Part shown: positions 2,871 to 64,000 of the stretch, piece by piece | Numbering within the stretch: position 1 is the stretch's first letter | How the letters are laid out: every line of letters starts with the position of its first letter | Assembly (NCBI GenBank): GCA_000091205.1 | Contig: AP006497.2 | Source: Cyanidioschyzon merolae | Taxonomy: Eukaryota | DNA length: 64,000 nt | Direction: 5' to 3' (one strand) | The notes under the pieces: model-generated | What the model was told of the DNA's origin: nothing | The model's database searches: none | The model's input: the letters and a program-made list of their open reading frames with translations, nothing else | Translations under genes and position numbers: made by a program

Positions 2871-2901
2871 GTTCGAGGCGCGCCTGTTCGAGTTGGTTTA
2901 G

Positions 2902-3675
2902 CGCTTGCGTTCGAGCTTTTTGTCGATTCCATCGGGAAGCAGACCTGCTTTTTATTCTTCCTTGCACTCCGTGATTCAAGCCCATCACAGACGTGTTTTC
3001 TATCGTGAAACGTAATGATCGCTGCACTGGGCGAATCGCTGAAGCGTTCTGCACAATCACGTCGGAGCATATATCGTCGTTTTTCAGCAAGTCTTTCTCC
3101 CTCCGGGCAGGTCGTCGACTACGGGCATTCAGAAGTACGTGCATTTGTCGAAATAGAAAATCCATGCGAAAAGTATGGACATGAAAGTTAGGGATCCCGG
3201 AGGGTCGTCATTGCCAGGCGCCGGAAAAATGGATATATTGCTCTCCTCGTCGACCAGTGAGCGAAGAAGAGCAAGCGAAGATGATGACGAAGAAGAAGAG
3301 AATAGATAGGCGAGAAAAGATGGATGCCCGACGAGACGCTGGCGATTCTTTATTAGCACTGACGGCGCGAGTTCTAGCAATCCTGGCAATCGTGCGTTCA
3401 ACCGTCGACGATGCTCGCATGTAGCTCGTGAACCGAGACTTCACTGTCACCATCAATATCAGACGATGCGCGGTGCAGGAAACGATACCCGAGGAGCTAT
3501 GACGATCCAACTTCGTAGGGCATGCGCTCAGGCTCGACGCGTGCCTGGATACACTGAAGCTGCCAGCAGGTGGCTGGTCAGAAAAAATGGGAGGCTTCTG
3601 CACGCGGGCACCAGTTTAACCTCCATGGGCGCGAAATGCCTATCGTTTTACTGACTACAGACGTTCATTCTCGAG
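2902..3675 (+). mobile_element. Internally deleted (MITE-like) derivative of the Fanzor-like element; 5' module joined directly to the 3' end
   Basis: 2902-3190 aligns with 16058-16329, the 'U' 5' module of copy C. 3190-3400 aligns with the first ~170 bp of the nuclease gene (gggatccNgaggg..., cgacgagacgctggcga). At ~3425 the sequence jumps to the C-terminal end, gtgaaccgagacttcactgtcaccatcaatatcagacgatgcgcg (VNRDFTVTINIRRCA). This is followed by the conserved tail blocks cagcaggtggctggtc and gggaggcttctgcacg. Confidence 0.6.
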
Positions 3676-4541
3676 CTCGCTCGTACGGCCACCAGCAACT
3701 AGTATACTGTGTTAAGAAGCATGCACAGTGAAATTCCGCAAAAGCTGAGCAGTCACCTGCATGCTGTTCTGATCTGGTAGGCTCGTACGCCATTTGGAAC
3801 GTTGGAGTCGTTTGCTTGTGCCTCCTTCGCGAACGAGCGATGCGGCGTCCGGAACCTTGGCCAAAACGCGTTCCAATACATTATTTCGAAAAGCTGGGCG
3901 TGAGACGCGAGTCAGGACGAAACGGCAATGCGCGCTCAAAGTATGGAAGACTCGATAGAGTCGACCTATCGAAAACAGCTGAGAACCCGAGGATACCAGT
4001 CGAACTTCAACGGTCTTGGACGAAGTTCACAGCCTCAGCACTTGAAATGCCATCCAAATCGCATCAAAACTTGAATATTGTTATTCGGGAGCAAATCGCG
4101 TCTCCGCGCTGGCCTGCCAGGGTTACGCCTCCGATGCCGTTCAGGTAGCCTTCATTGGAACTGGTTGTCTCCCAATGAGCCGTCTCGCTCGGCGGACCGC
4201 TCCCGCAGGCAATGTGCGTTTCCATTCAAAGTCAATCACATGCATCAAGCGTTCCAGGCGCTGCTCATTCGCCTGCACGGGACACTCGCAGGGCAACACG
4301 CTCTGCAGGCACAAGACACTAGTACGATATGCGCGTCCTTCGCAGATCAGCTCCATAGATTGTGGAACCCAAACGACGCTCCACATTCACCCAAGGACGA
4401 GAGAGCGCCCGCCCCGCAGAGCGATGGGATCCGCACGCGGCTCCGGTGCGCAGCCGCTGCCACGCGTCGTTATCGGGAGGCCTCTTCCGACTGACGGCAT
4501 CAGGTCATCACACGCTCATACAATGCTCAATCTCCAACCGG

Positions 4542-8547: not shown

Positions 8548-8575
8548 GCTTCGGGCGCCGTGGCAAAAGTGCAAA

Positions 8576-10919
8576 CCCCTGGAAACAAACGTCTTTCAAA
8601 AGAAAAACGATGCAGCCTGCGGTATACAGAAATGGCGCGCAGCGCGCCCGAGTCAGAACGTCTCCAGCTGACGTGCAGTCGCCTCCCCGTCTTTTTGGAC
8701 CGGCAACCTACTACTGATTCCAACTTTTTTTCATATAATTCCACTTTGGGAGGTTTTCCAACAACGTTCTCTCTTGTCAACTCTGGAGGTCTTTTCTCGA
8801 GCACCGCACATCTCCTTATATTGATGGCGGCGTTAAAGTCTCGGTTCGCAAACTCCATACGTTTCTTGCCATCATTGGTTGTACTTACTGATGCAAGCAA
8901 TCCTCGAACTTTCGCTCTCCTTTCCATTTGCTCTTCCGTCAGCGCTCCGTACTTTTTCGTATCCTCAGGGCTCCGCTAGCACTTTTCCATCTCCACCCTC
9001 TGAAGTGTACACCCCAGTTCATGGTGTGTATACGATGTTCGAAACTCATCCATTGGTATCGTAACGAAACGCCTCGCGCACTCCTTGTACGTTCTTGTCG
9101 TTGGAGCTGGAGTAGTCCCTTTTTGGGTCTTCCAGCGCCCTGCTCCGTACCCTGCTACGAGCCTCTGACTTTTATCCTCCTTCAGGGCACTCAACTGATT
9201 GAAAAAACTCTCGAACGCACGCTGCTTACCACACTATAGATTCATTCGCAAACGAGCCCACCGGGGCTTGGTATACTCCTCCCACAATGCATTCCAATGA
9301 GCAACGCGAACTTCCATGAATTTCCGAAAAGCTTTAAAGTCCGCTCCTCGGCTCGTCACCTCGCTCACAGCTTCCAGGTGCTCGTTCATTCCTGCATTCC
9401 ATTTCTCGATTTTCTTCCTCGTATTCATGATTCCCGATTCTCGATGGTATCTCGCTCTCGAGAACCTCAAAAGACGCATATCTTTCTGATGCAAGGTACC
9501 GTCAGTACCATCTTCCCCACGCTTCGGTGCTGCGATGGTTATGATACTTGTGTTTCCAGCGTCCGCGCCAACGACAAAGTCGTTCTCGTGCATCTTCTGT
9601 GTCGCAGGACCCGCCTTCTTCTCATCTTCATGGTTCTCCGAGGGCGGAACGGGCCGATCCACACTCAACCGCCGATAGTGTATGCACCTGGCTACTCCAT
9701 CGGTTTCGATCATCCCAGTGAATACCTTTTGTCTGCTTACTTTCAGACGTTTGAAATCGAAGATACTCTTCCGGGGCATCTCCCGGTTTTCGTCGGTGAA
9801 CTCCTCCCTGCGAACATCGAACTCCGGACAGATCTCCTTCAAGATGCCATGAAGGATTCTCGAGTCCATAGTCACAAAATGTGACTTGATATTGCAAATT
9901 GGAACCATGTTGAAGCGCTTCCCCATTAGGGCCGACTTCCGCCTCTCCCACTCTTTATTTGTCTCCTCACTCAGCTTCCTCTCTGCCTGGCGTTCGAGTT
10001 CTCGGTCCAGAACCACAGAATAGCGCAGGACGAGGCGATAGTATCTTTCCTTAACTTTTTTTCAACTCTGATATCTTTTCTGTTGGATTCGCCAGCTCCA
10101 AGACTGCACGGTGCTCTTGTATTACGGCACGGATGACGGAGTCCTCATTCATGCTCTGGTTTGACGCCTTCTTGTCGACGAATTCGATCTCATCTTCATG
10201 CTTACGATCGTTCGTGGTGCCATTGAGGTCCGCCTATACTCCATTGCGAGAGATGCGCGGGTAGCGTGCAAACACGGCACGTATCATGAAACGTTCGAGG
10301 TTCATTGTCAAATGGTTCTTCAGATTCGTGAGGTATTTCATGGCCCCATAGTCCTAAATATCCCGGTCACCCCTATACCGAGTACCCTCGAAGCGGAATT
10401 CCGGGAAGGTTTCGTGGAGGACATGCACTGCTCATTTTCCCTCCGCGCTTTCGCTGTACCAAGCATCAGGTGACGAATAAACGTCGTGTCGAAGAATTCT
10501 TCCGGAATCTCGACTGTTTCCATGTGCGTCACGTCGCGATACATCTCCTTCACCAAATGCATCAGTCCTATAGAGTCCATACGAACCCTCGTGAAGTACG
10601 AATCAACATAATTTCTGATGGCCTCTCGCAGATTTTGCTTGTGCGGATCCTGAATATGGCCTAGATGGCATGATTTCTTTACAATCTTGAAGTAGGGTCG
10701 TCTTTCGAGTTGCATTTGGCGCCGGGCCCCCCCTTGTTTTGCGTCATCGTCGTGTCTTGTTTCTCTTCGGTCGGTATTCTTTTTCGCTTTTTCCGCTAGC
10801 CGGCGACGCTGCCCCTCCAGGATCCTCCACTTCCTTTTCCATAACTTTCCTCTTTTATTTTTTTGTAACGCACTTTGAACGCTTCTGCTATAAACCGCGA
10901 AAAAAACACGAGAATACAC
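8576..10919 (-). pseudogene. TnpB/Fanzor-like nuclease relic, copy B (full length, disrupted)
   Basis: Four collinear ORF pieces are present.
- 10338-10919: basic N-terminus KRGKLWKRKWR.
- 9234-10016: ...[18 protein letters not shown], RuvC-I GxDxG.
- 8976-9194: ...RRFVTIPMDEFRTSYTHHE.
- 8493-8927: ...KKRMEFANRDFNAAINIRRC, with the RuvC-III Asp codon at 8838-8840.
An in-frame TAG at 8976-8978 is CAG (Gln) in copies A, C and D. Further stops and shifts lie between 10016 and 10340. The tail ends ...cgtttgtttccagggg at 8576. Confidence 0.75.
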
Positions 10920-11650: not shown

Positions 11651-11897
11651 GGAGCATGGAGGTAGAGTGCATCATGATGGACACTTTTTCGATCAGCTAT
11701 ACCCATCCATCTCGCTATCTGGAATCCAAGTACAATGTAAACGTTTTGTCATTGGAGAGAAATCAGCGGCAACAGCAAATGCAGCGGATTTTGTTCCATG
11801 TGAAAACTTCTCACACAGGCGAGCGTGCCGCGACTCTGTGTGCTTGCTACCTGCGCGCGGTGAAACTTTCGTCGTTCCACGCTTTACGTCCGAGTTT

Positions 11898-12185
11898 CAT
11901 AACCCATACTTCTTCTCGGATGTACTGGCGTTTCAGACGTACTATCGGGCGCCGAGTGCCTGCCCGTGAACATCCGCCTCAATAGCGCTTGTAGCGCCGG
12001 TGCTGTCGTAGCACAGAAACAGAACGGCGTTGCCGTACCGCAGACGGCGTCTGCTCGAGGCATGCTTCACCTGACGTAGAACTGGGTCTCGTTGTCAGGT
12101 TGTGCTCGGACAGCCTGCGGATGCAAAACTTGCTTTCGCTGCACAACACATTGGAGAAACTTGGCTGTTACGATGAATCCTGGGA
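11898..12185 (+). repeat. Second, inverted partial copy of the V module (homologous to 22052-22338)
   Basis: 11915-12170 aligns with 22069-22323 at a constant offset of ~10154. Shared strings include ctcggatNtNctgg, gaacggcgttgccgta, gacgtagaaNNgggtctcg and ctggagaaacttggctgtta. Its first ~165 bp form an inverted repeat with 11479-11641. Confidence 0.6.
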
Positions 12186-16057: not shown

Positions 16058-18612
16058 CGCTTGCGTTCGAGCTTTTTGCCGATTCTATCGGGGTAGGGGT
16101 GATTTTTGTTCGTCTGTGCGCTCCGTGGTTCAAGCGCATTGTAGGAGTGTTTTCTATCGTGAAACGTGATGATCGCTCCCCCGGGCGAAACGCTGAGCGT
16201 TCATCACTCGGTAACACATCGGGGTACATGCCATTTATCTTGCGAAAGCCACGCTCCCTCCGAGAAAGCCCTCATCTAAGGGCAAAAAACGTGCGGTCGT
16301 TTTGACGAAATAAAACTCCAAAACAAAGCTATGCACGTGCAAGTCGGGGATCCTGAAGGGCCCTTGCCGCCGGCTGGCAGAAAAAAACGAAAAATTCTGC
16401 CAATGGAATAGGAACAAAACAGAACGAAGAAGCAAAAGGGCGAGGCCCGACGTCAAAAGCTGCGCGAAAGACGACTATGCGACGAGACGCTGGCGAAAGC
16501 CTGTCTTGGTAACCATATCAAGGATTCGGACAAGCAAACATGCAACAAGTCATCCGAGACCGTGTCGAGTCGCACTCCATGAGTATTGTAAAGGATTCTT
16601 CAGGACTAATGCCTTTGACGAAGGAGATGAATCGCGGCGTGACGGGCATCAAAACAGTCGAGGTTCCGGGAGAATTTTTCAACACCATCGTTATGCATCA
16701 CCTGATGCTTGGCACAGGGGAAACGTCGAGGAGAAAGGAGCGAATGCATGCCCTCCACAAAATTACCCCGAATACCCTTTTCATCGGTAATCGATACCGG
16801 CGTGACTCGGATATTTACACGTACGGGGCGAAAAAGTACCTCACGAACCTAAAGAACCATATGAACATGAACCTCACACGTTTCATGATACGTTCCGTCT
16901 TCGCGCTGGACCCGTGCCTCTTTCGCAAAGCGATAGACGGGTTACCATCAATGGCATCTCGAACGATAGTAAGAACGAACAGGAGATCGAACTCGTCGAC
17001 AAGAAGACCTCGCACAGGAGCATGAATGAGGCTTCTGTCATCCGCGCGGCTATTCAAGAGCACCGTGCACTCTTGGGGCTCGTTGACCCAGCAGAACAGG
17101 TATCAGAGATGAAAAAGATGGAAAAAGAAAGATGTTACCCACACTTCCTGCGCTATTTCGTGTATTTGGACCAAGAACTCGAACGCAAGGCTGGGATGGA
17201 GCAGGGTGTGCGGAAAAATGCAGAGTCGGTAGAACGGAAGGCTGCGCTTGCGGGTACGCGCTTCGAAGTCGTTCGGTTATGCGAGATCAAGTCGCACTTT
17301 GTGACAATCGACTCCAGAGTCCTTTACGGAATACTGAAGGAGATAAGTTCGGGGCTCGATGTACGCAACAAGGAGTTCACCGGTGAAAATCGGGACACGT
17401 ACTGGACGCATGTCTTCGACGTCAAGCGTCTCAATACGAGCCAGAAAAGGTATTCAGAGGTGTCATCGAAACTAAATGAGTAGCCATGTGTGCACACGAT
17501 CGGCGCTTGAAGGCAGATCGTCATATCGTGCCTTCGGCTTCGCCCGTGACGAAGCATGAAGATGTGAAGCAGGCGGATCCCGCGACGCAGGAGGTTCAGG
17601 ATACTGGCTTTGGCGGCGGCGCGGACCCTGGGATGACGAATATCATAACGATCGCAGCACCGAAGCGTGCGGGAGATGGTGCTGATGGTAACCTGCGTCA
17701 GATAGAAATGCGTCTCTTGAGGTTCTCGAGACCGAGATACTACCGAGAATCCGGTTCAATGAATGCGAGGAAGAAAATCGAGACATGGAATGCAGGAGTC
17801 AAGGATCAGCTGGAAGCTATGAGCGAGGTGACGATCCGACATGCGGACTTTCAAGATCTGCCAGAGTTCATGGACACTCAAGCTGCTCATGTCGAGGAGC
17901 TGCGGAAAGAGTATCGAAAACAAAGGTGCGCTCGTCAGCGTTTGAATCTGTACAGAGAGAACCAGCGTGCATACGCCAACGATTTCAATCCGTTGAGCGC
18001 CTTGAAGGAGGACGAGAGTCAGAGGCTGGTAGAAGCGTATGGGGCAGCGCGCTAGCTGGCCCGAAAAGGGACTACGCCAGCTCCAACGACAAGAACACTC
18101 AAAGAGCGTACACGGCGTTTTGTTACGATACCAATAGGTGAGTTCCGAACATCGTATACACACCATGAAGTGAGGTGCGTACTTCAGAGGGTCGAGATGG
18201 AAACGTGCCAGCGGAGCCAAGAGGATATAAAAAAGTACAGACCGCTGACGGAGGAGCAAATGGGAAGGAGGGCAAAAGTTCGCGGACTCCTTGCATTCGT
18301 GAGTACAACCAATGATGGCAAGAAACGCATGGAGTTTGTGAACCGAGACTTTAACGCCGCAATCAACATCAGAAGATGTGCGCAGCTGGAGAAAAGACCT
18401 CCAGAGTTGACACGAGAGAGAATTTTGTCAGACGACCTCTCAAGGTCGAAGTATACGAGAAAAAGTTGAAACCAGTAGCAGGTGGCCGGTCGAGAAAGTC
18501 GGGAAGGCGTCTGTACGTCGGCGTATAGGCATCCGATCTGCGGCGCGCCGCTCGCCACTCCTGTACCCCTAGCGACAGCGTTTTTCTTGTGAAAGGCGTT
18601 TGTTTCCAGGGG
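16058..18612 (+). mobile_element. Fanzor/TnpB-like element copy C ('U' 5' module + disrupted nuclease gene + conserved 3' tail)
   Basis: The U module 16058-16329 matches 2902-3190. The gene pieces are 16540-17025, 16914-17483, 17486-18055 (...GGGADPGMTNIITIAAP; Asp codon 17624-17626) and 18170-18469 (...MEFVNRDFNAAINIRRCA; Asp codon 18347-18349).
Lesions:
- frame changes near 16535 and 16925;
- TGG to TAG at 18053-18055, where copy B keeps Trp;
- a +2 bp 'ga' insertion near 18417, which breaks the C-terminal ...TRENFVRRPLKVEVYEKKLKPVAGGRS.
The tail ends ...gaaaggcgtttgtttccagggg at 18612. Confidence 0.75.
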
Positions 18613-18652
18613 TGCCCAGGGGGTCGCTTTAGCCTAGCTTTTGGTCTCGAAA

Positions 18653-20743
18653 ATGCCTCAATGGGACAAGCGCGCCAGACAGCGAAGAAGCAACCAGTCT
18701 CGTTGGCGTCGGGAACCATGGGAGACGCAGGAAGTCGCTTCACCGTTAAGTTGGCTCTGCTTGCCTGCGCGTGTGCTAGCGTGCTTTGGCTCACCTCCGA
18801 GCGAAGAGCTCGCTGAGTCGGCGCAGCCGCCCGACGACATTGTGCCTTGGGAGGACTCCGAAACCGCCGACTCGTCTTCTCAAAGCAGTTTTGGTGGCTC
18901 TGATGAAGGTGCGCGCCAAGAGCTTGCGTGCCGTACGCGAGCGGAGAAAGTGGACGGCAACGGCGCTGGCACCGAGAACGACCAGGATGAGCAACTATCC
19001 GTCGAGCTGGACGCGCTTCGTCGACGTCGCTCCTTCTCGGCCACGAGCTTCCACTTGCCAGCTGTATCCCGTCCAACAGCGGCAGGTAGCATTGTCGACA
19101 TACCGTCAGAGCGTCCACAGACCGCGCAACGCAGAGAACGTCAACGTATCGTGGGCAAGTTGGCGCTCGTTGGGCTCGGTACTCAGCTTCTGCTGCTCAG
19201 CTTGAAGTTGTACAGATTTGAATCGCTCTCACCAGCGTATCTCGTTTTTTCCGTCGCGTTTTTCGTGTTCAGCGGAGGACTTGCTTTCCTGAGTCTCCAC
19301 TACTTTAAAATGGGGCGCCTGCCACCTTTTCTGGATGTGGCTGCAAAACGGCGAGAAGCGTCGCACAACCGTTCGTGTGGGACAAGCCCGGCCCGCTCCA
19401 ACACCGACTCGACGATGCGTACGCTGAGCGGAGCGGGTTCGGCGTTCAGTACTCCAACGGCGGACAGATCGCCATGCACGCCCAAGTCTCGAATTGCCTC
19501 GCGCTCTCGAGAGTACGCTCAAAGCTTCCAAGAAAAAGGCGATGCGCAGGTCGTCAGAACGTCATTTGACTCGCGATCAAACCGACGAATCTTCTCAGTG
19601 CTGGGTGTCGAGAGCTCGCAGTCATTTTGCGAGCAACAGGGGTGCAGTACAAGAATGCCGAGCAAGAGTCGACCGGCAGCGATACGAATCGACGTTACCA
19701 GCGAGCGTACCGCGGCAACATCAGCGAGCGATGACGCAGTTAGTGCGGACAACATCGCCGTGTCCGTCAGAGAGCCGTCCACGCTCTCTGATGCCGATGC
19801 TGATCATACAGAGCATGGTATCGAGAAGCGTCGCGGCACCTTCCGCGAAAAGCCCGGCCAGCGAGGCACGCCCGGTGTTCGCGCTGCTGTTGCCGAAACC
19901 CAGCGACGACATGTGCAGCGGGCGACAGAAACTCGTAGCGCCGGCGCACCGGCCTTGCCGGTACCAGACGCTTCGGACCAGATGAGAGCTGGCGCATCCT
20001 TAGAGCAACGGCGTCGATCCCGCGAGGCATCCTCTCTGTCAGACGACGGAACGCCTCCCGAAGTGCAAATTGAGTCACTGCGTATTGTAGAGAGTTGGGA
20101 GAAGATGCGTATAACAGCAAAGAAGGAAATCTTAGCGGAAGATTTTTGCGAGGGAATGCTCAGTCTATTGAGCGTCATCGATGCATTGGGTCCCGCTTTT
20201 CGAATCATCAAAATCGACATTCGAAATCATGTGAATGGGATCCACCGCAGCTGCACGAAACACAACTGCCGCACCCTGCAGCGCCTCATTGATGCAGAGT
20301 CGAATCGGGTATCACGCTGGTTGAATCCATCGGGCATTGGCGATGGTACGGAACATGTGCTCTGGATGAAACGGGCCATGCAGTTTGTGTACATGCTGTT
20401 GTACATGTTTTTGGATGGCATCGATTTAGACCGGTGTGTATACCATGCATATCGCATGACGCTGCGAGCCTGTCACCCGTACATTGTCCGGAAAGTAGCG
20501 GAGAACCTGCACCGCTTCGTCCCTACCAGAGCTGGCTTTTTGCGCAGAATCCACGCAGATGAGGACTTTGTTTTAACGCAAATGCGGCGATTCTTGAAGG
20601 CAATCGAACCGCGTCTTGATATTATCGTTGAGGTATTCAACGCAAACCAGCTGGAACCGCACTGTCGATTCTCATGCGCAGAATTGCGCCGGCTGGCACA
20701 GCACTGTGCAAAATATGATATCGACGAGGATATGACGCAGTGA
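18653..20743 (+). CDS. Membrane-anchored protein with C-terminal glycolipid-transfer-protein (GLTP) domain
   Basis: ORF 18641-20743 starts on TTG; the first ATG is at 18653 (MPQWDK). Predicted TM segments are LALVGLGTQLLLLSLKL and YLVFSVAFFVFSGGLAFLSL. The GLTP-like C-terminus reads LSLLSVIDALGPAFRIIKIDIRNHVNGI...GTEHVLWMKRAMQFVYMLLYMFL...YHAYRMTLRACHPYIVRKVAENLHRFVPTRAGFL. Confidence 0.7.
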   Translation: MPQWDKRARQRRSNQSRWRREPWETQEVASPLSWLCLPARVLACFGSPPSEELAESAQPPDDIVPWEDSETADSSSQSSFGGSDEGARQELACRTRAEKVDGNGAGTENDQDEQLSVELDALRRRRSFSATSFHLPAVSRPTAAGSIVDIPSERPQTAQRRERQRIVGKLALVGLGTQLLLLSLKLYRFESLSPAYLVFSVAFFVFSGGLAFLSLHYFKMGRLPPFLDVAAKRREASHNRSCGTSPARSNTDSTMRTLSGAGSAFSTPTADRSPCTPKSRIASRSREYAQSFQEKGDAQVVRTSFDSRSNRRIFSVLGVESSQSFCEQQGCSTRMPSKSRPAAIRIDVTSERTAATSASDDAVSADNIAVSVREPSTLSDADADHTEHGIEKRRGTFREKPGQRGTPGVRAAVAETQRRHVQRATETRSAGAPALPVPDASDQMRAGASLEQRRRSREASSLSDDGTPPEVQIESLRIVESWEKMRITAKKEILAEDFCEGMLSLLSVIDALGPAFRIIKIDIRNHVNGIHRSCTKHNCRTLQRLIDAESNRVSRWLNPSGIGDGTEHVLWMKRAMQFVYMLLYMFLDGIDLDRCVYHAYRMTLRACHPYIVRKVAENLHRFVPTRAGFLRRIHADEDFVLTQMRRFLKAIEPRLDIIVEVFNANQLEPHCRFSCAELRRLAQHCAKYDIDEDMTQ

Positions 20744-35429: not shown

Positions 35430-37062
35430 ACCATGATTCCAGTTCACATGCACAAGCTTCTATGCTCCTCCGTTCCTTGCATATAGCATGCTTGGATCAT
35501 GCATTGTTTACGTTTTTGATCTCTCCGTTTCAACGCAACTCGCGCCGCTGAATCGACGACGAAAAGAGCTCGACGAAACCCCGTGAAGACCGCGTCACAA
35601 GATCGTACCACAAATTCACTAAACTTTTCATTCCAAATAATAAGTTCAATTCAAAAGATAAATCCTCCTCTAATTGCGGTCATCAACGAAGCTGCATTCG
35701 ACAACAGCGGCGGCATGATGCCTGTCACAGGAGGTGCTCCCCGAGGCTTCCGCTTTCTCTGTGAGGAAAATGGTAATGGACCCGGCCATGGGTCATCACA
35801 GGGATCGCTACTGATAGAGCGCGCGTCGACATATAAAGCGCGAAGCGAGCGTAGACGGATCGAAAGTTTTGGAGTTGATCTCCAGCCTGGGTTGCCGTCT
35901 TGGTGCCTGATTCATCATGGACGGTAACATCGCGTCCCAAACAGCCTCGATCTTGGAAAGCAGCGTGCGCTTGCACGACCAGCGGACAGGGTACTCACCG
36001 AGGATCTCGCGCAGAGGAAACCCGTAATCGTCGGGTACAGCACAACGCGCTGCATCAAAGGGAGGCATCTTGCAGCGCCCTGCGTACCGGTCAAGCGGTT
36101 GTACTGAGCGGTGAAGCGAGCGCTGACGAGCGATAAGCGGCGGTTCCTCAGCAGCAGCAGCAGCGATACTGACTTTTTCGATGACAAAACGTTTACATGG
36201 GCTATGGATCTCAGATTGCGGGATGGATATCGGTAATTGAACATGCGCCCATCATGAAGCATCTACATGAAAGATCCATCACCTGTACTTGCTCTCGGAT
36301 ATACTGGTCGTTTCGTGCGTTCTAGCGTGTGCCGAGTGCCTGTTTGGAGCACCCGCCATGCGCTTAGACCGGTGGGGCTGATGCATCACAGCGGCAAAAC
36401 AGCTTTGCCCTGCCAGCGAGGGCGTCGACTCGAGGTGTGATTCACTATTCACAGGATCGGAATTGGTGATCATTTTGGGAGCCTGCAAGCTGCGCAGACA
36501 GACGTACTTTATGCAGCGGCGCCAAGCGATATTCGAGAAGTCCACGACGACCAGGGCGACGCCTAGACGCAGGCTATGCGCTCCTAGTCCCAGAATAAAC
36601 TGCGATGCGGACGAGCTGCTCAGGTCTCACGAAACCACCTGCAACTGGGGCGAGCACGAAGCGCGAGCCCGAGACACTCGTCCGGCTCTCAGGACCTTCC
36701 GCCTAGAGGATAAACTTTAGACAGTACGGAAACCTCTCCCGCTTTTAACTTTATATCGTTGCTAGTTAGGAGTGAGCCTCCGTTCTTTGTTCCGTATTGC
36801 GCGCTCGACACGCCCACCTCCATACTTGGCTGGCTGGCATGAAACACGACGTGCATCTCGCCGATGAAGAGAAACGCGATCGCGATCATTCGTTGACTTG
36901 GTGCTCTAACAGACAAGTTGCGTTTGCGCAAAAGTCCTAGAAAAGTATAGTTTTCATTTCAATCGCGTTTCAACCCTCAGTTTAGTGTACGCAGGTGATT
37001 TTTCGCGGTTTACACCAGAAGCGTTCAAAATGGGTTCATGTTCAAGAAAATATAGGAAAGTG
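35430..37062 (+). repeat. 'V' upstream module attached to copy D (longest version in the window)
   Basis: 35430-36340 aligns with 63110-64000 in the same orientation and with 59950-60670 in the opposite orientation. 36290-37062 aligns with the reverse complement of 10920-11650. It contains an ORF-like block on the minus strand (35808-36068) that is conserved in the other copies. Confidence 0.6.
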
Positions 37063-39341
37063 ATGCACGTGCAAGTCGGGGATCCTGAAGGGCCCTTGCC
37101 GCCGGCTGGCGGAAAAAAACGAAAAACTTTGCCAATGGAATAGGAACAAAACAGAACGAAGAAGCAAAAGGGCGAGGCCCGACGTCAAAAGCTGCGCGAA
37201 AGACGACTATGCGACGAGACGCTGGCGAAAGCCTGTCTTGGTAACCATATCAAGGATTCGGACGAGCAAACATGCAACAAGTCATCCGAGACCGTGTCGA
37301 GTCGTACTCCATGAGTATTGTAAAGGATTCTTCAGGACTAATGCACTTGACGAAGGAGATGAATCGCGGCGTGACGGGCATCAAAACAGTCGAGGTTCCG
37401 GGAGAATTTTTCAACATCATCGTTATGCATCACCTGATGCTCGGCACAGGGGAAACGTCGAGGAGAAAGGAGCGAATGCATGCCCTCCACAAAATTACCC
37501 CGAATACCCTTTTCATCGGTACTCGATACCGGCGTGACTCGGATATTTACACGTACGGGGCGAAAAAGTACCTCACGAACCTAAAGAACCATATGAACAT
37601 GAACCTCACACGTTTCATGATACGTTCCGTCTTTGCGCTGGACCCGTGCCTCTTTCGCAAAGCGATAGACGGGTCACCATCAATGGCATCTCGAACGATA
37701 GTAAGAACGAACAGGAGATCGAACTCGTCGACAAGAAGACCTCGCACAGGAGCATGAATGAGGCTTCTGTCATCCGCGCGGCTATTCAAGAGCACCGTGC
37801 ACTCTTGGGGCTCGTTGACCCAGCAGAACAGGTATCAGAGGTGGAAAAAGATGGAAAAAGAAAGATGTTACCCACACGTCCTGCGCTATTTCGTGTATTT
37901 GGACCAAGAACTCGAACGCAAGGCTGGGATGGAGCAGGGTGTGGGGAAAAATGCAGAGTCGGTAGAACGGAAGGCTGCGCTTGCGGGTACGCGCTTCGAA
38001 GTCGTTCGGTTATGCGAGATCAAGTCGCACTTTGTGACAATCGACTCCAGAGTCCTTTACGGAATACTGAAGGAGATAAGTTCGGGGCTCGATGTACGCA
38101 ACAAGGAGTTCACCGGTGAAAATCGGGACACGTACTGGACGCATGTCTTCGACGGCAAGCGTCTCAATACGAGCCAGAAAAGGTATTCAGAGGTGTCATC
38201 GAAACTGAATGAGTAGCCATGTGTGTACACGATCGGCGCTTGAAGGCAGATCGTCATATCGTGCCTTCGGCTTCGCCCGTGACGAAGCATGAAGATGAGA
38301 AGCAGGCGGATCCCGCGACGCAGGAGGTTCAGGATACTGGCTTTGGCGGCGGCGCGGACCCTGCGATAACGAAGATCATAACGATCGCAGCACCGAAGCG
38401 TGCGGGAGATGGTGCTGATGGTAACCTGCGTCAGATAGACATGCGTCTCTTGAGGTTCTCGAGACCGAGATACTACCGAGAATCCGGTACAATGAATGCG
38501 AGGAAGAAAATCGAGACATGGAATGCAGGAGTCAAGGATCAGCTGGAAGCTATGAGCAAGGTGACGATCCGACATGCGGACTTTCAAGATCTGCCAGAGT
38601 TCATGGACACTCAAGCTGCTCATGTCGAGGAGCTGCGGAAAGAGTATCGAAAACAAAGGTGCGCTCGTCAGCGTTTGAATCTGTACAGAGAGAACCAGCG
38701 TGCATACGCCAACGATTTCAATCCGTTGAGCGCCTTGAAGGAGGACGAGCGTCAGAGGCTGGTAGAAGCGTATGGGGCAGGGCGCTAGCTGGCCCGAAAA
38801 GGGACTACGCCAGCTCCAACGACAAGAACACTCAAAGAGTGTACACGGCGTTTTGTTACGATACCAATAGGTGAGTTCCGAACATCGTATACACACCATG
38901 AAGTGAGGTGCGTACTTCAGAGGGTCGAGATGGAAACGTGCCAGCGGAGCCAAGAGGATATAAAAAAGTACAGACCGCTGACGGAGGAGCAAATGGGAAG
39001 GAGGGCAAAAGTTCGCGGACTCCTTGCATTCGTGAGTACAACCAGTGATGGCAAGAAACGCATGGAGTTTGTGAACCGAGACTTTAACGCCGCAATCAAC
39101 ATCAGAAGATGTGCGCAGCTGGAGAAAAGACCTCCAGAGTTGACACGAGAGAGAATTTTGTCAGACGACCTCTCAAGGTCGAAGTATACAAGAAAAAGTT
39201 GAAACCAGTAGCAGGTGGCCGGTCCGAAGAAAACTGGGACGCGTCTGCACCTCAGTTCGGGACGTCTTGTCAAGGGCGCTGTCGTCGCCACGTCTGTATA
39301 CTGGCGGCGGCGACGTTTGTTTTTCGAGAAGCGTTCGCTGG
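37063..39341 (+). pseudogene. TnpB/Fanzor-like nuclease relic, copy D (near-identical core to copy C)
   Basis: The pieces are 37272-37757, 37646-38119/37758-38216, 38219-38788 (GGGADPAITKIITIAAP) and 38903-39202 (MEFVNRDFNAAINIRRCA). It shares with copy C the TAG at 38786-38788 and the +2 bp shift near 39150. It also has an in-frame TAG after MHVQVGDPEGPLPPAGGKKRKTLPME. The 3' tail 39225-39341 is diverged from C and closer to A. Confidence 0.75.
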
Positions 39342-39388
39342 TATCAGCCGTGGTCGCGCGTGTTTATTCGGTCTTCGACAGGCGCGAC

Positions 39389-60670: not shown

Positions 60671-60964
60671 TATCGGTTATGTTATGAACTCAAGGGGCAC
60701 TGCCTCGGAGATGCCAATGGGAAATGACGACCAGGAATCCTAAACCTATGTATTACACCATGAGCGCTTATTCCTTCATTGAAATATTGGGGCGCTATCC
60801 CTAAAGAAAAGCTCGTGAAAAAACCAAGGCACGAACAGAGAAAGCAGTTCTCTTTCCGTTTCCATCCGACATGGGTGCAGGCAGCGGGTCCGTCGAGGTG
60901 GATAACCACGAGGATCCAGCGCTTCGTGCAACTCCACACGCTTGGGTCCTGGTCAAAGGCCCAC

Positions 60965-61258
60965 GTCGCAAAACGGCGCCAGAGTCCGCATCCAATAGCG
61001 GAACGGAGTCAATGTACTCTGGAATCGTTCAAGCTGCTAAGTTTCTCCATCGCTTGGTGCCCGTCGCAAAACGGCGCCAGAGTCCGCATCCAATAGCGGA
61101 ACGGAGTCAATGTACTCTGGAATCGTTCAAGCTGCTAAGTTTCTCCATCGCTTGGTGCCCGTCGCAAAACGGCGCCAGAGTCCGCATCCAATAGCGGAAC
61201 GGAGTCAAGGTACTCTGGAATCGTTCAAGCTGCTAAGTTTCTCCATCGCTTGGTGCCG
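60965..61258. repeat. Tandem repeat, 3 x 98 bp
   Basis: The unit is gtcgcaaaacggcgccagagtccgcatccaatagcggaacggagtcaatgtactctggaatcgttcaagctgctaagtttctccatcgcttggtgccc. It starts at 60965, 61063 and 61161. Units 1 and 2 look identical; unit 3 has a few substitutions and is truncated at its end. Confidence 0.95.
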
Positions 61259-63109: not shown

Positions 63110-64000
63110 AAAATATCTGACAGAATCATCCAATGCATGCATACAAGTCTGGATGCTTCTCGTTTCCTGAAGTGCGGTCTGCTCCAATCTTGCATTCTCC
63201 AAATGTTCGGTCTTTCTGTTCTCGACGACGTCGTGGCCCGTCGACTTGCTTATTTGCTCATGGCATACGTTGACTGAACTTTTCGCTTCAGCGAATGATC
63301 GATTCGGTTTAGGAGACGAACCCTCCTATCTCACTGGTCATCGACGAGGCGGCATTCGACAGCAGCCTGCTGCCTCTCACATGACACGCCCGCAGACAGA
63401 CCCGTCTCTTCTGTTTCCATGGAGAGAGGCCTCGTTCTCGGACCTGAATCATCCCAGCGATCGCCCGCGGTGGAGCGTACGTCAACGCTTTCCACGCAGG
63501 TAGGGTAGACGAAACGAAATTTCTCGCCCAGGTTTCCCGCCTGAGTTTTATTGCGATTTCTGATGCCATCATGATGAACATCGCGTTCCACAAACCTCGA
63601 TCGAACCGAGGAGCGTGCCCGTGCTTGTGCAGCGGACTGAGCGCCTACCGAGGACTCTCGCCCGGCGGGTGCTCGATAGTGTAGGGTACGGTGCCGGGCG
63701 TGGAAACGGAGGATTGCAACACCGACAAGCATCCGTACCCGTCAAGCGCACAGCCCAAGCGAAGAAGCAAGCCCGTGCGTGGGCGCCACGCCCACCCGCA
63801 AGCTCCGTCGCGCTCCGGGGATGTCTGGTGGTGGATGCCCCGGAACACTCCACCACAGGATGCAGTCCTGCATCGCTTCAAGAGGTCTCGCGCCGGCAGT
63901 GCCGGATCGCAGCCACACCCAAAAAACCCCATTTGTGACAACTGTCTATCGTGACATTCGTGCGCGTGTCAGAACTGCCGGTGATTTGGCGGCAACGCGC
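63110..64000 (+). repeat. Copy of the distal V module, same orientation as copy D; runs off the window
   Basis: 63280-63700 aligns with 35620-36060. Matching pairs include actgaacttttcgcttca/actaaacttttcattcca, ggtcatcgacgaggcggcattcgac/ggtcatcaacgaagctgcattcgac and catcatgatgaacatcgcgttcc/catcatggacggtaacatcgcgtcc. Similarity continues to 64000. Confidence 0.55.

Follow-up and report, generated by a model that had tools for sequence, protein, structure and literature searches.

The last ~70 nt of a Fanzor1-family element, one of whose copies ends at position 18613 of a 64,000-nt stretch of Cyanidioschyzon merolae DNA (GenBank assembly GCA_000091205.1, contig AP006497.2; the whole stretch is referred to below as the window), may well be the omega-RNA (fRNA) scaffold of a CMe-1A-like Fanzor1 element, with the flank from 18614 as the guide; we put the chances of this reading at about even. 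The element was recognised by comparing the window with itself, which yielded one repeat in five copies, A to E, of which copy A (16325-18613, + strand) carries the tail discussed here. We favour an omega-RNA because of family membership, position, architecture, strand-specific stability and the sparing of stems by substitutions; covariation and expression are no part of the case.

We propose that a sense-strand transcript would read through the right end of the element and would fold into stem-loop 1 (GGCG..CGCC), followed by the linker ACUACUGUA, a conserved block, and by stem-loop 2, which is long and has its base at the terminus. By analogy with characterised Fanzors (PMC10432273; PMC10530073), the adjacent 15-20 nt of flank (18614-18633, +) would then guide the Fanzor1 RuvC nuclease. 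Transcription and processing of the tail, its binding by the nuclease and its use with a guide are all predictions of this model. Frameshifts and stop codons interrupt all five window copies, making every one of them a pseudogene; any activity could therefore belong only to the past of the family or to rarer intact copies elsewhere.

A Fanzor1-family gene and its structured 3' tail

Profile matches identify the gene of the element as a member of the Fanzor1 nuclease family. A profile built from 40 diverse homologues (A8) matched the Protein Data Bank (PDB) entries for the Fanzor1 proteins of Parasitella parasitica (PpFz1; 9cf0, E = 1.4e-21), Spizellomyces punctatus (SpuFz1; 8gkh, E = 3.9e-14) and Guillardia theta (GtFz1; 9cer, E = 1.2e-9). 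Only this broadened profile succeeded: a narrow family profile (A4) had no matches in the PDB, and neither the open reading frames (ORFs) of the window nor full-length homologues matched Pfam or NCBIfam. Among 1.84 billion representative proteins, 2,739 relatives were found by profile search. The RuvC motifs GADPG, DEFRTS and NRDFNAAINI occur in that order in the family consensus and in homologues, and conceptual translation of the window copies gives the split motifs GADxG, DEFRTS and NRDFNAAINIRRC; in copies A and B the aspartate preceding the catalytic glutamate of DEFRTS is mutated (IGEFRTS). An AlphaFold2 model of the nuclease was poor (mean predicted local distance difference test score 38, predicted template-modelling score 0.26) and was discarded.

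The preliminary description of this DNA treated 18470-18612 as a conserved non-coding tail in which the protein frame was already lost. This is correct for the last ~70 nt, but about half of the interval is protein-coding, its first half encoding the last ~25 residues of the nuclease. The first two of the sequence blocks shared among copies correspond to the C-terminal motifs PVxGGRS and GRRLHV; they are coding, since homologues end in the same residues and the third codon position is less conserved than the others (match to consensus over the last 25 codons, 0.89, 0.90 and 0.84 for positions 1, 2 and 3, respectively). Indeed, translating the 48-copy consensus gives ...KKLEAVVGGRSKKTGRRLHVSWRRLV and then TAG, the same native C-terminus, ...KKLEAVVGGRSKKTGRRLHVSWRRLV*, is seen in the homologues P0008, P0010 and P0013, and homologous metagenome proteins end in ...YEKKLEPVEGGRSKAAGRCLHIR, ...GGRSKETGRRLHVSWRLLG and ...GGRSKKARRHLHVSWRLLL. 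Copies A and B share a 2-nt insertion near 18416. In copy A the remainder of the C-terminus is consequently read in a shifted frame, at 18418-18528 (+), as ENFVRRPLKVEVYEKKLKPVAGGRSRKSGRRLYVGV*; this stretch holds both blocks and matches the C-termini of homologues. The stop codon of the family aligns to 18539-18541 (+), and is TAG or TAA in 30 of the 45 copies analysed and TGC in copy A.

A C-terminal extension of the nuclease that encodes the whole tail would explain the 5' half (18470 to ~18541), and one lineage (L062, P0001, P0012) does have CAG at the stop position, reads through it and gains ~25 residues. Beyond the stop codon this explanation is refuted, and as an account of the entire tail we find it barely credible: two-thirds of the copies stop at the same aligned codon, P0008, P0010 and P0013 end at that position or a few codons earlier, indels after it are commonly not multiples of three, the right ends fall into two variants of different length, and distant homologues terminate earlier still, in ...VGKTLRR*.

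The non-coding part, from the stop codon to the right end, is ~70 nt long (67-75 nt; 18542-18613 in copy A), and folds as a stem-loop, a linker and a long stem-loop. A further short hairpin, H0 (consensus AGACG-TCT-TGTCT), overlaps the last codons and the stop, and is degenerate in copy A. Stem-loop 1 (18542-18556, +) follows the stop directly and has a 15-nt frame, GGCG-N7-CGCC; the GC palindrome reported earlier lies at 18540-18551. All three of the reported palindromes exist, but they belong to other copies than those to which they had been assigned, GGCGCGCTGCGCGCC lying in the copy at 8575, GCGGCGCGCCGC at 18540-18551 and GGGCGCTGTCGTCGCC in the copy at 39203. The linker (18556-18568, +), a single-stranded block with the family consensus CACTACTGTACAC and the sequence CACTCCTGTACCC in copy A, is the best-conserved part of the tail (mean consensus match 0.93, above that of codon positions 1 and 2), and does not occur outside tails or on the antisense strand. 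Stem-loop 2 (18565-18613, +) extends to the element terminus. In copy A its apical hairpin, CGTTTTTC-TTGT-GAAAGGCG, spans 18579-18598, and its base is formed by the terminal CCAGGGG pairing with CCCCT at 18566-18570 (CCCCU/AGGGG).

The two right-end variants differ in how they build stem-loop 2, and both form perfect hairpins that close at the same base. In the majority variant the base consists of CACCGYYGG paired with UUGWUGGUG and the tip of CGTCGTTCGA-CTT-TCGAACGGCG; in the second variant (copies A and C and eight others) the tip is CGTTTTTC-TTKT-GAAAGRCG. All four of the shared blocks described earlier exist, although the terminal one, cgtttttctt..ccagggg, is exact only in copies A and C and represents one of these two variants. 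Similarity between copies ends at 18612/18613, beyond which conservation is at background (0.40).

The predicted fold of copy A has a free energy of -29.6 kcal/mol (z-score -2.1) and that of copy C -28.4 kcal/mol (z -2.4), and the majority-variant consensus reaches -38.9 kcal/mol (z -6.3). Over the 45 copies, the mean free energy of the apical hairpin is -10.6 kcal/mol (z -2.5) for the sense strand versus -5.3 kcal/mol (z -0.9) for the antisense strand. This sense-only stability points to G-U pairs. Structure confined to the sense strand would also suit the 3' untranslated region of a Fanzor mRNA, in which a hairpin and a U-rich tract served 3'-end formation or stability rather than guide binding, and one variant indeed has UUUGUUU after the hairpin. 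We consider such a role very improbable, given that the majority variant lacks a U-rich tract and instead has ...GGCGUUGAUGGUGCG, that no recognisable polyadenylation signal was noted, and that closure of stem 2 exactly at the element boundary is left unexplained.

The same tail recurs well outside the window. We scanned metagenome contigs of the Joint Genome Institute (JGI) with an alignment of the C-terminal protein sequence, obtaining at least 475 matching stretches, and retained 79 loci representing 56 distinct genomic places. In metagenomes of hot-spring type, this tail terminates no fewer than 50 distinct copies of an element of ~3.2 kb. When the 79 loci were searched with a profile of the tail (nhmmer), 87 tails were found, and 84 of them directly follow a nuclease C-terminus, far beyond what chance would give. 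The other three have no nuclease C-terminus upstream, and all come from one composite arrangement behind a degenerate upstream copy.

Substitution patterns and covariation

To compare the observed substitutions with a null expectation, we re-placed each copy's own substitutions at random positions occupied by the same base. Stem 2 of the majority variant is more stable than its permuted counterparts in 30 of 35 copies (-17.8 versus -13.0 kcal/mol; Wilcoxon p ~1e-7), as is that of the second variant in 10 of 10 copies, and the same control had no effect on a coding stretch of equal length. Thus, substitutions spare the stems, and it is the loops, the second linker and the terminal arm that vary. 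The proposed structure has 76% of its cells paired, compared with 32-50% when the register is slid.

These patterns bear on whether the tail could be a neutral relic of a single master sequence, with incidental hairpins that are, and always were, without function. All window copies and nearly all of the 45 copies analysed are pseudogenes, the mean conservation of the tail is close to that of third codon positions, and no covariation survives the controls described below, all of which a neutral relic would predict. It would not predict substitutions as strongly non-uniform as those observed, with the linker far better conserved than the loops (0.4-0.6) and the stems spared relative to a permutation null that leaves coding sequence unaffected, nor the z-score of the consensus fold, nor two diverged right-end variants that each keep a perfect hairpin at the same place. 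Moreover, every characterised Fanzor has a functional RNA at the equivalent location (PMC10530073; PMC10432273). On balance we regard a neutral origin as distinctly unlikely.

Several results count against an omega-RNA scaffold, foremost among them the outcome of the covariation tests. The preliminary description had proposed a covarying GC hairpin, but covariation is not demonstrable in this family. In stem-loop 1 the outer four pairs (GGCG/CGCC) hold in 84-98% of copies without a single change on both sides, and the inner two pairs are unpaired in 26 and 23 of the 45 copies, that is, in more than half of the 45-50 copies compared. RNAalifold recovered from the 45 tails nothing beyond a hairpin of 5 pairs, to which covariation contributed -0.04 kcal/mol. 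On an alignment made from sequence alone with MAFFT, the three helices are 76% paired across the 45 copies versus 75.6% after column shuffling, a value reached in 73 of 500 shuffles. Restricting the MAFFT alignment to 25 majority-variant copies and extending the stem gave a marginal result (11 pairs changed on both sides versus 6.9, reached in 8 of 500 shuffles), and a further comparison on MAFFT alignments was marginal at best, with 24 of 500 shuffles as high. Individual compensatory changes do occur, but they are anecdotal: G-C to U-A at the tip in L006 and L023, G-C to A-U in L003 and L062, and U-A to C-G in L062.

Alignments fitted to a covariance model gave a different picture, which we do not accept. 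With a model of the proposed structure (R1), all five measures exceeded 500 of 500 shuffles. A decoy model (R2), for which the seed was left unchanged but every 3' arm was shifted by two columns, produced a fitted alignment in which three measures exceeded 500 of 500 shuffles and the other two were reached in only 2 and 3 of 500; its scores for these sequences were as high as those of R1. Because a decoy structure yields it too, we reject the apparent significance of the fitted alignment and attribute it to the fitting itself and to the relatedness of the copies. Copy A (18526-18615) was not reported by R1 at E <= 0.001 but was reported by the decoy model at 29 bits; sequence, not structure, therefore drives the scores of these models. 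In short, the comparison of covariation across copies that had been suggested for this tail did not exceed shuffle controls on sequence-only alignments, and on the fitted alignment it was matched by a decoy.

Other results fall on the same side of the balance. The stability of the tail does not correlate with the intactness of the ORF (Spearman -0.11, p = 0.46). Mean conservation of the tail (0.83 in the stem-loop 1 region and 0.78 in the stem-loop 2 region) is not above that of third codon positions (0.84). Rfam gave no match at its gathering score in the window as a whole, and at a permissive threshold only a chance-level one (E = 0.83) in region 18380-18680. Among the 87 tails there are no stand-alone scaffold copies beyond the one composite arrangement. 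Lastly, 11 distinct left ends showed no clear conserved motif at the left flank that could serve as a transposon-adjacent motif (TAM); the left boundary is fuzzy within a T/C-rich run, and GATT is often nearby.

Element ends and element copies

No terminal inverted repeat (TIR) was found in the element by self-comparison, end-to-end comparison or motif search, and no inverted copy of CACTACTGTACAC was found at the left end. Direct hairpins at both ends in the style of IS605 (TTTTTC..GA.AAA.CGTTT), picked out by eye, were also considered and rejected, since local alignment against shuffled sequences gave p values of 0.4-0.9 in direct or inverted orientation.

The architecture of the ends is relevant to the main rival of an omega-RNA, a DNA-level signal. 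The tail could be a cis element marking the right end, with hairpins that are recognised, possibly as single-stranded DNA, by a transposase acting in trans or by a replication or repair factor, which would mobilise the element. The tail ends exactly at the element boundary, its terminal nucleotides form part of stem 2, and an element with neither a transposase gene nor TIRs needs signals in cis. For CMe-1A, too, no TIRs or target-site duplications (TSDs) were found (PMC3627910), and Tc1/mariner-type elements with a DDE_3 gene and TIRs carry relatives of the nuclease at 42-44% protein identity. Nonetheless, left and right ends are not significantly similar in either orientation, such that no shared end motif is visible; stability on one strand through G-T/G-U pairs favours RNA, or else single-stranded DNA of the top strand only; and a candidate transposase was not found within the window. 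We consider a DNA-level signal possible, although unlikely, and we note that it would be compatible with an omega-RNA, since the two overlap in TnpB elements.

All five tails described previously are real repeats. Those of copy A (18470-18612, +), copy B (39203 to ~39347, +) and copy C (8575-8720, -) align about as reported. That of copy D has its right end near 1724 rather than 1696, and that of copy E (3560-3675) is divergent and aligns poorly. Copy A is either 5'-truncated or has had its 5' part replaced, and its ORFs are fragmented by several frameshifts. Copies B (36174 to ~39347, +; tail 39254-39347) and C (8575 to ~11758, -; tail from stem H0 to the end, 8575-8666) are full-length pseudogenes, from which we take the length of the full element to be ~3.17 kb. 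Copy D (1724-2222, -; tail 1724-1812) is a 3' fragment of the element, and copy E (2899-3675, +) is a fragment of a divergent subfamily with a weak, shortened tail. Metagenome contigs L030 and L040 contain the locus orthologous to copy C, at 98-99% identity including flanks. The element has a single ORF, with no second ORF inside it, and its 5' part is a non-coding module of ~600-850 nt that is also found standing alone.

By self-comparison with BLAST, copy A is 98% identical to copy B (A 16325-18519 versus B 37057-39253) and 75% identical to copy C (A 16325-18613 versus C 10848-8575). Despite the 98% identity of their 2.2-kb bodies, the last ~93 nt of A and B (18520-18612 versus 39254-39348) are only 57% identical, and their 5' flanking modules also differ. 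Such a mosaic suggests that copies have recombined or undergone gene conversion, the breakpoint falling immediately downstream of the codons for GRRLHV. The ~600-nt 5' module occurs in the window at 36174-36760, at 11758-11170 (-) and at about 21929, and an inverted fragment of it lies at 11884-12074, just upstream of copy C. In metagenome contigs it also occurs without the nuclease gene or tail (L017/L018/L025/L029 and L051/L052/L068/L070), as described for TE-N2_CMe.

Some metagenome loci show copies in unusual arrangements. In the composite loci (L024 734-845, L035 354-465, L057 445-537, L079 466-579, and also L021 and L019), an element of the main family lies directly downstream of the tail of a divergent or degenerate copy of a second subfamily, with ~700 intervening nt in common; it appears that either a tandem pair has spread as one unit or elements insert preferentially at the right end of another. 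Two copies in L077 (3798-4339) are arranged tail-to-tail and form a near-perfect inverted repeat, with arms joined at their right ends near 4068. One haplotype of another locus (L041 705-766, compared with L056) has a ~49-nt internal tandem duplication of the right end, and contains CACTACTGTACAC twice.

The window is eukaryotic and has ~55% G+C; a kinesin, a WD40 protein, an Omp85 protein and a NIF phosphatase are each encoded by a long ORF that lacks introns. At 99% identity the kinesin matches only a JGI metagenome protein, and it is 70% and 52% identical to sequences from Cyanidiococcus yangmingshanensis and Cyanidium caldarium, respectively. These values place the source among the cyanidiophycean red algae, near Cyanidioschyzon and Cyanidiococcus. 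Two further repeats are present: a 98-nt unit occurs three times head-to-tail at 60964-61257 (99-100% identical), and a second dispersed repeat, unrelated to the Fanzor element, links 46751-47039 with 63351-63637 (and also 35699-35767) at ~71% identity.

Known relatives and significance

The element is best called CMe-1A-like, an assignment made by matching the published description of that family rather than its Repbase consensus sequence. CMe-1A is a Fanzor1 family of Cyanidioschyzon merolae described in 2013 by Bao and Jurka, with ~150 copies of ~3 kb that are ~80% identical to their consensus, some of which have intact Fanzor1 ORFs (PMC3627910). It has no TIRs, its TSDs could not be determined, and its 5' 635 bp are common to a separate element, TE-N2_CMe (PMC3627910). 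The element in the window is likewise 3.17 kb long, has a single Fanzor1 ORF, no TIRs and no determinable TSDs, and resides in a cyanidiophycean red alga; its 5' module of ~600 nt also occurs alone, like TE-N2_CMe, and members of its family are 70-80% identical in pairs and match their consensus at 0.84-0.92. The 2013 description differs in that it predates omega-RNAs and does not include the right-end structure (PMC3627910). A search of the accessible literature found no paper on a guide RNA of the CMe-1A family.

In other Fanzors, an fRNA or omega-RNA derived from the 3' non-coding region that abuts the right end has been shown experimentally (PMC10530073; PMC10432273), and the location and type of the signal described here match this arrangement, as had been proposed for it: the gene is assigned to the Fanzor1 family by profile matches, and the tail abuts the right end on the sense strand. 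The layout of the tail is of the same design as the omega-RNA of SpuFz1, the Spizellomyces punctatus Fanzor1 studied by Saito et al. in 2023 (PMC10432273; PDB 8gkh). Both have two stems and a linker, with a long stem 2 that closes just before the guide position, and their nucleases belong to the same Fanzor1 superfamily. Their RNA sequences share no detectable similarity, however, and Spu-1 elements have inverted repeats, the 3' one of which is spanned by the omega-RNA, whereas the element in the window has none. Expression and binding have been shown for SpuFz1 and are predicted for the tail described here.

A likeness also exists to the omega-RNA of ISDra2 TnpB (IS200/IS605), which arises from the 3' end of the nuclease gene, stops where the element does on its right side and takes its guide from the flank. 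Its structure may extend into the last codons, as H0 does in overlapping the stop codon, and the RNA of GtFz1 overlaps 17 codons (PMC10432273). In contrast to IS200/IS605 elements, the element in the window has no TnpA (Y1) gene, and the similarity between its left- and right-end hairpins is no greater than that of shuffled sequences; its host is eukaryotic, and the overlap between RNA and ORF is much shorter than in ISDra2 TnpB.

Fanzor1 genes carried by Tc1/mariner-type transposons were also described by Bao and Jurka in 2013. The relatives of this kind found here (L080-L085) come from saline or brine metagenomes, and share the C-terminal motif NRDxNAAxNIRxC...RP..L.R with the family described here; the precomputed Pfam entry for their proteins is DUF8286 (PF26935). 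In these relatives a DDE_3 transposase gene precedes the Fanzor1 gene, TIRs of 30 nt (TATAC...GTATA) bound the element, and the non-coding sequence at the 3' end runs to 185-200 nt, whereas the element in the window has neither transposase gene nor TIRs and only ~70 nt of 3' non-coding sequence. The 3' regions of L080 and L085 could not be aligned to the tail in the window, and end in Tc1/mariner TIRs. From these comparisons the cyanidiophyte family looks like a transposase-less derivative that has lost both transposase and TIRs.

The element belongs to a known family, so the idea behind it is not novel; what the analysis chiefly offers is a correction of the first reading of this DNA, since the "non-coding tail" is half coding and the evidence for covariation is not real. 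If the omega-RNA reading is true, it would supply the guide-RNA partner of a Fanzor1 family that was described in 2013, before RNA guidance was known. A two-stem scaffold of only ~70 nt from a thermoacidophilic eukaryote would be of interest for the engineering of compact editors. It would also sharpen the question of how a Fanzor-only element multiplies with neither a transposase nor terminal repeats. One bold answer, which we consider quite improbable, is that the ~70-nt module is a functional minimal Fanzor1 omega-RNA and that nuclease and guide alone have sustained ~150 copies over the long term in thermoacidophilic red algae, with empty sites being cut under RNA guidance and then repaired from a filled copy. 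If so, the family would represent eukaryotic OMEGA-driven persistence without a dedicated transposase, and would offer a compact editor adapted to heat and acid.

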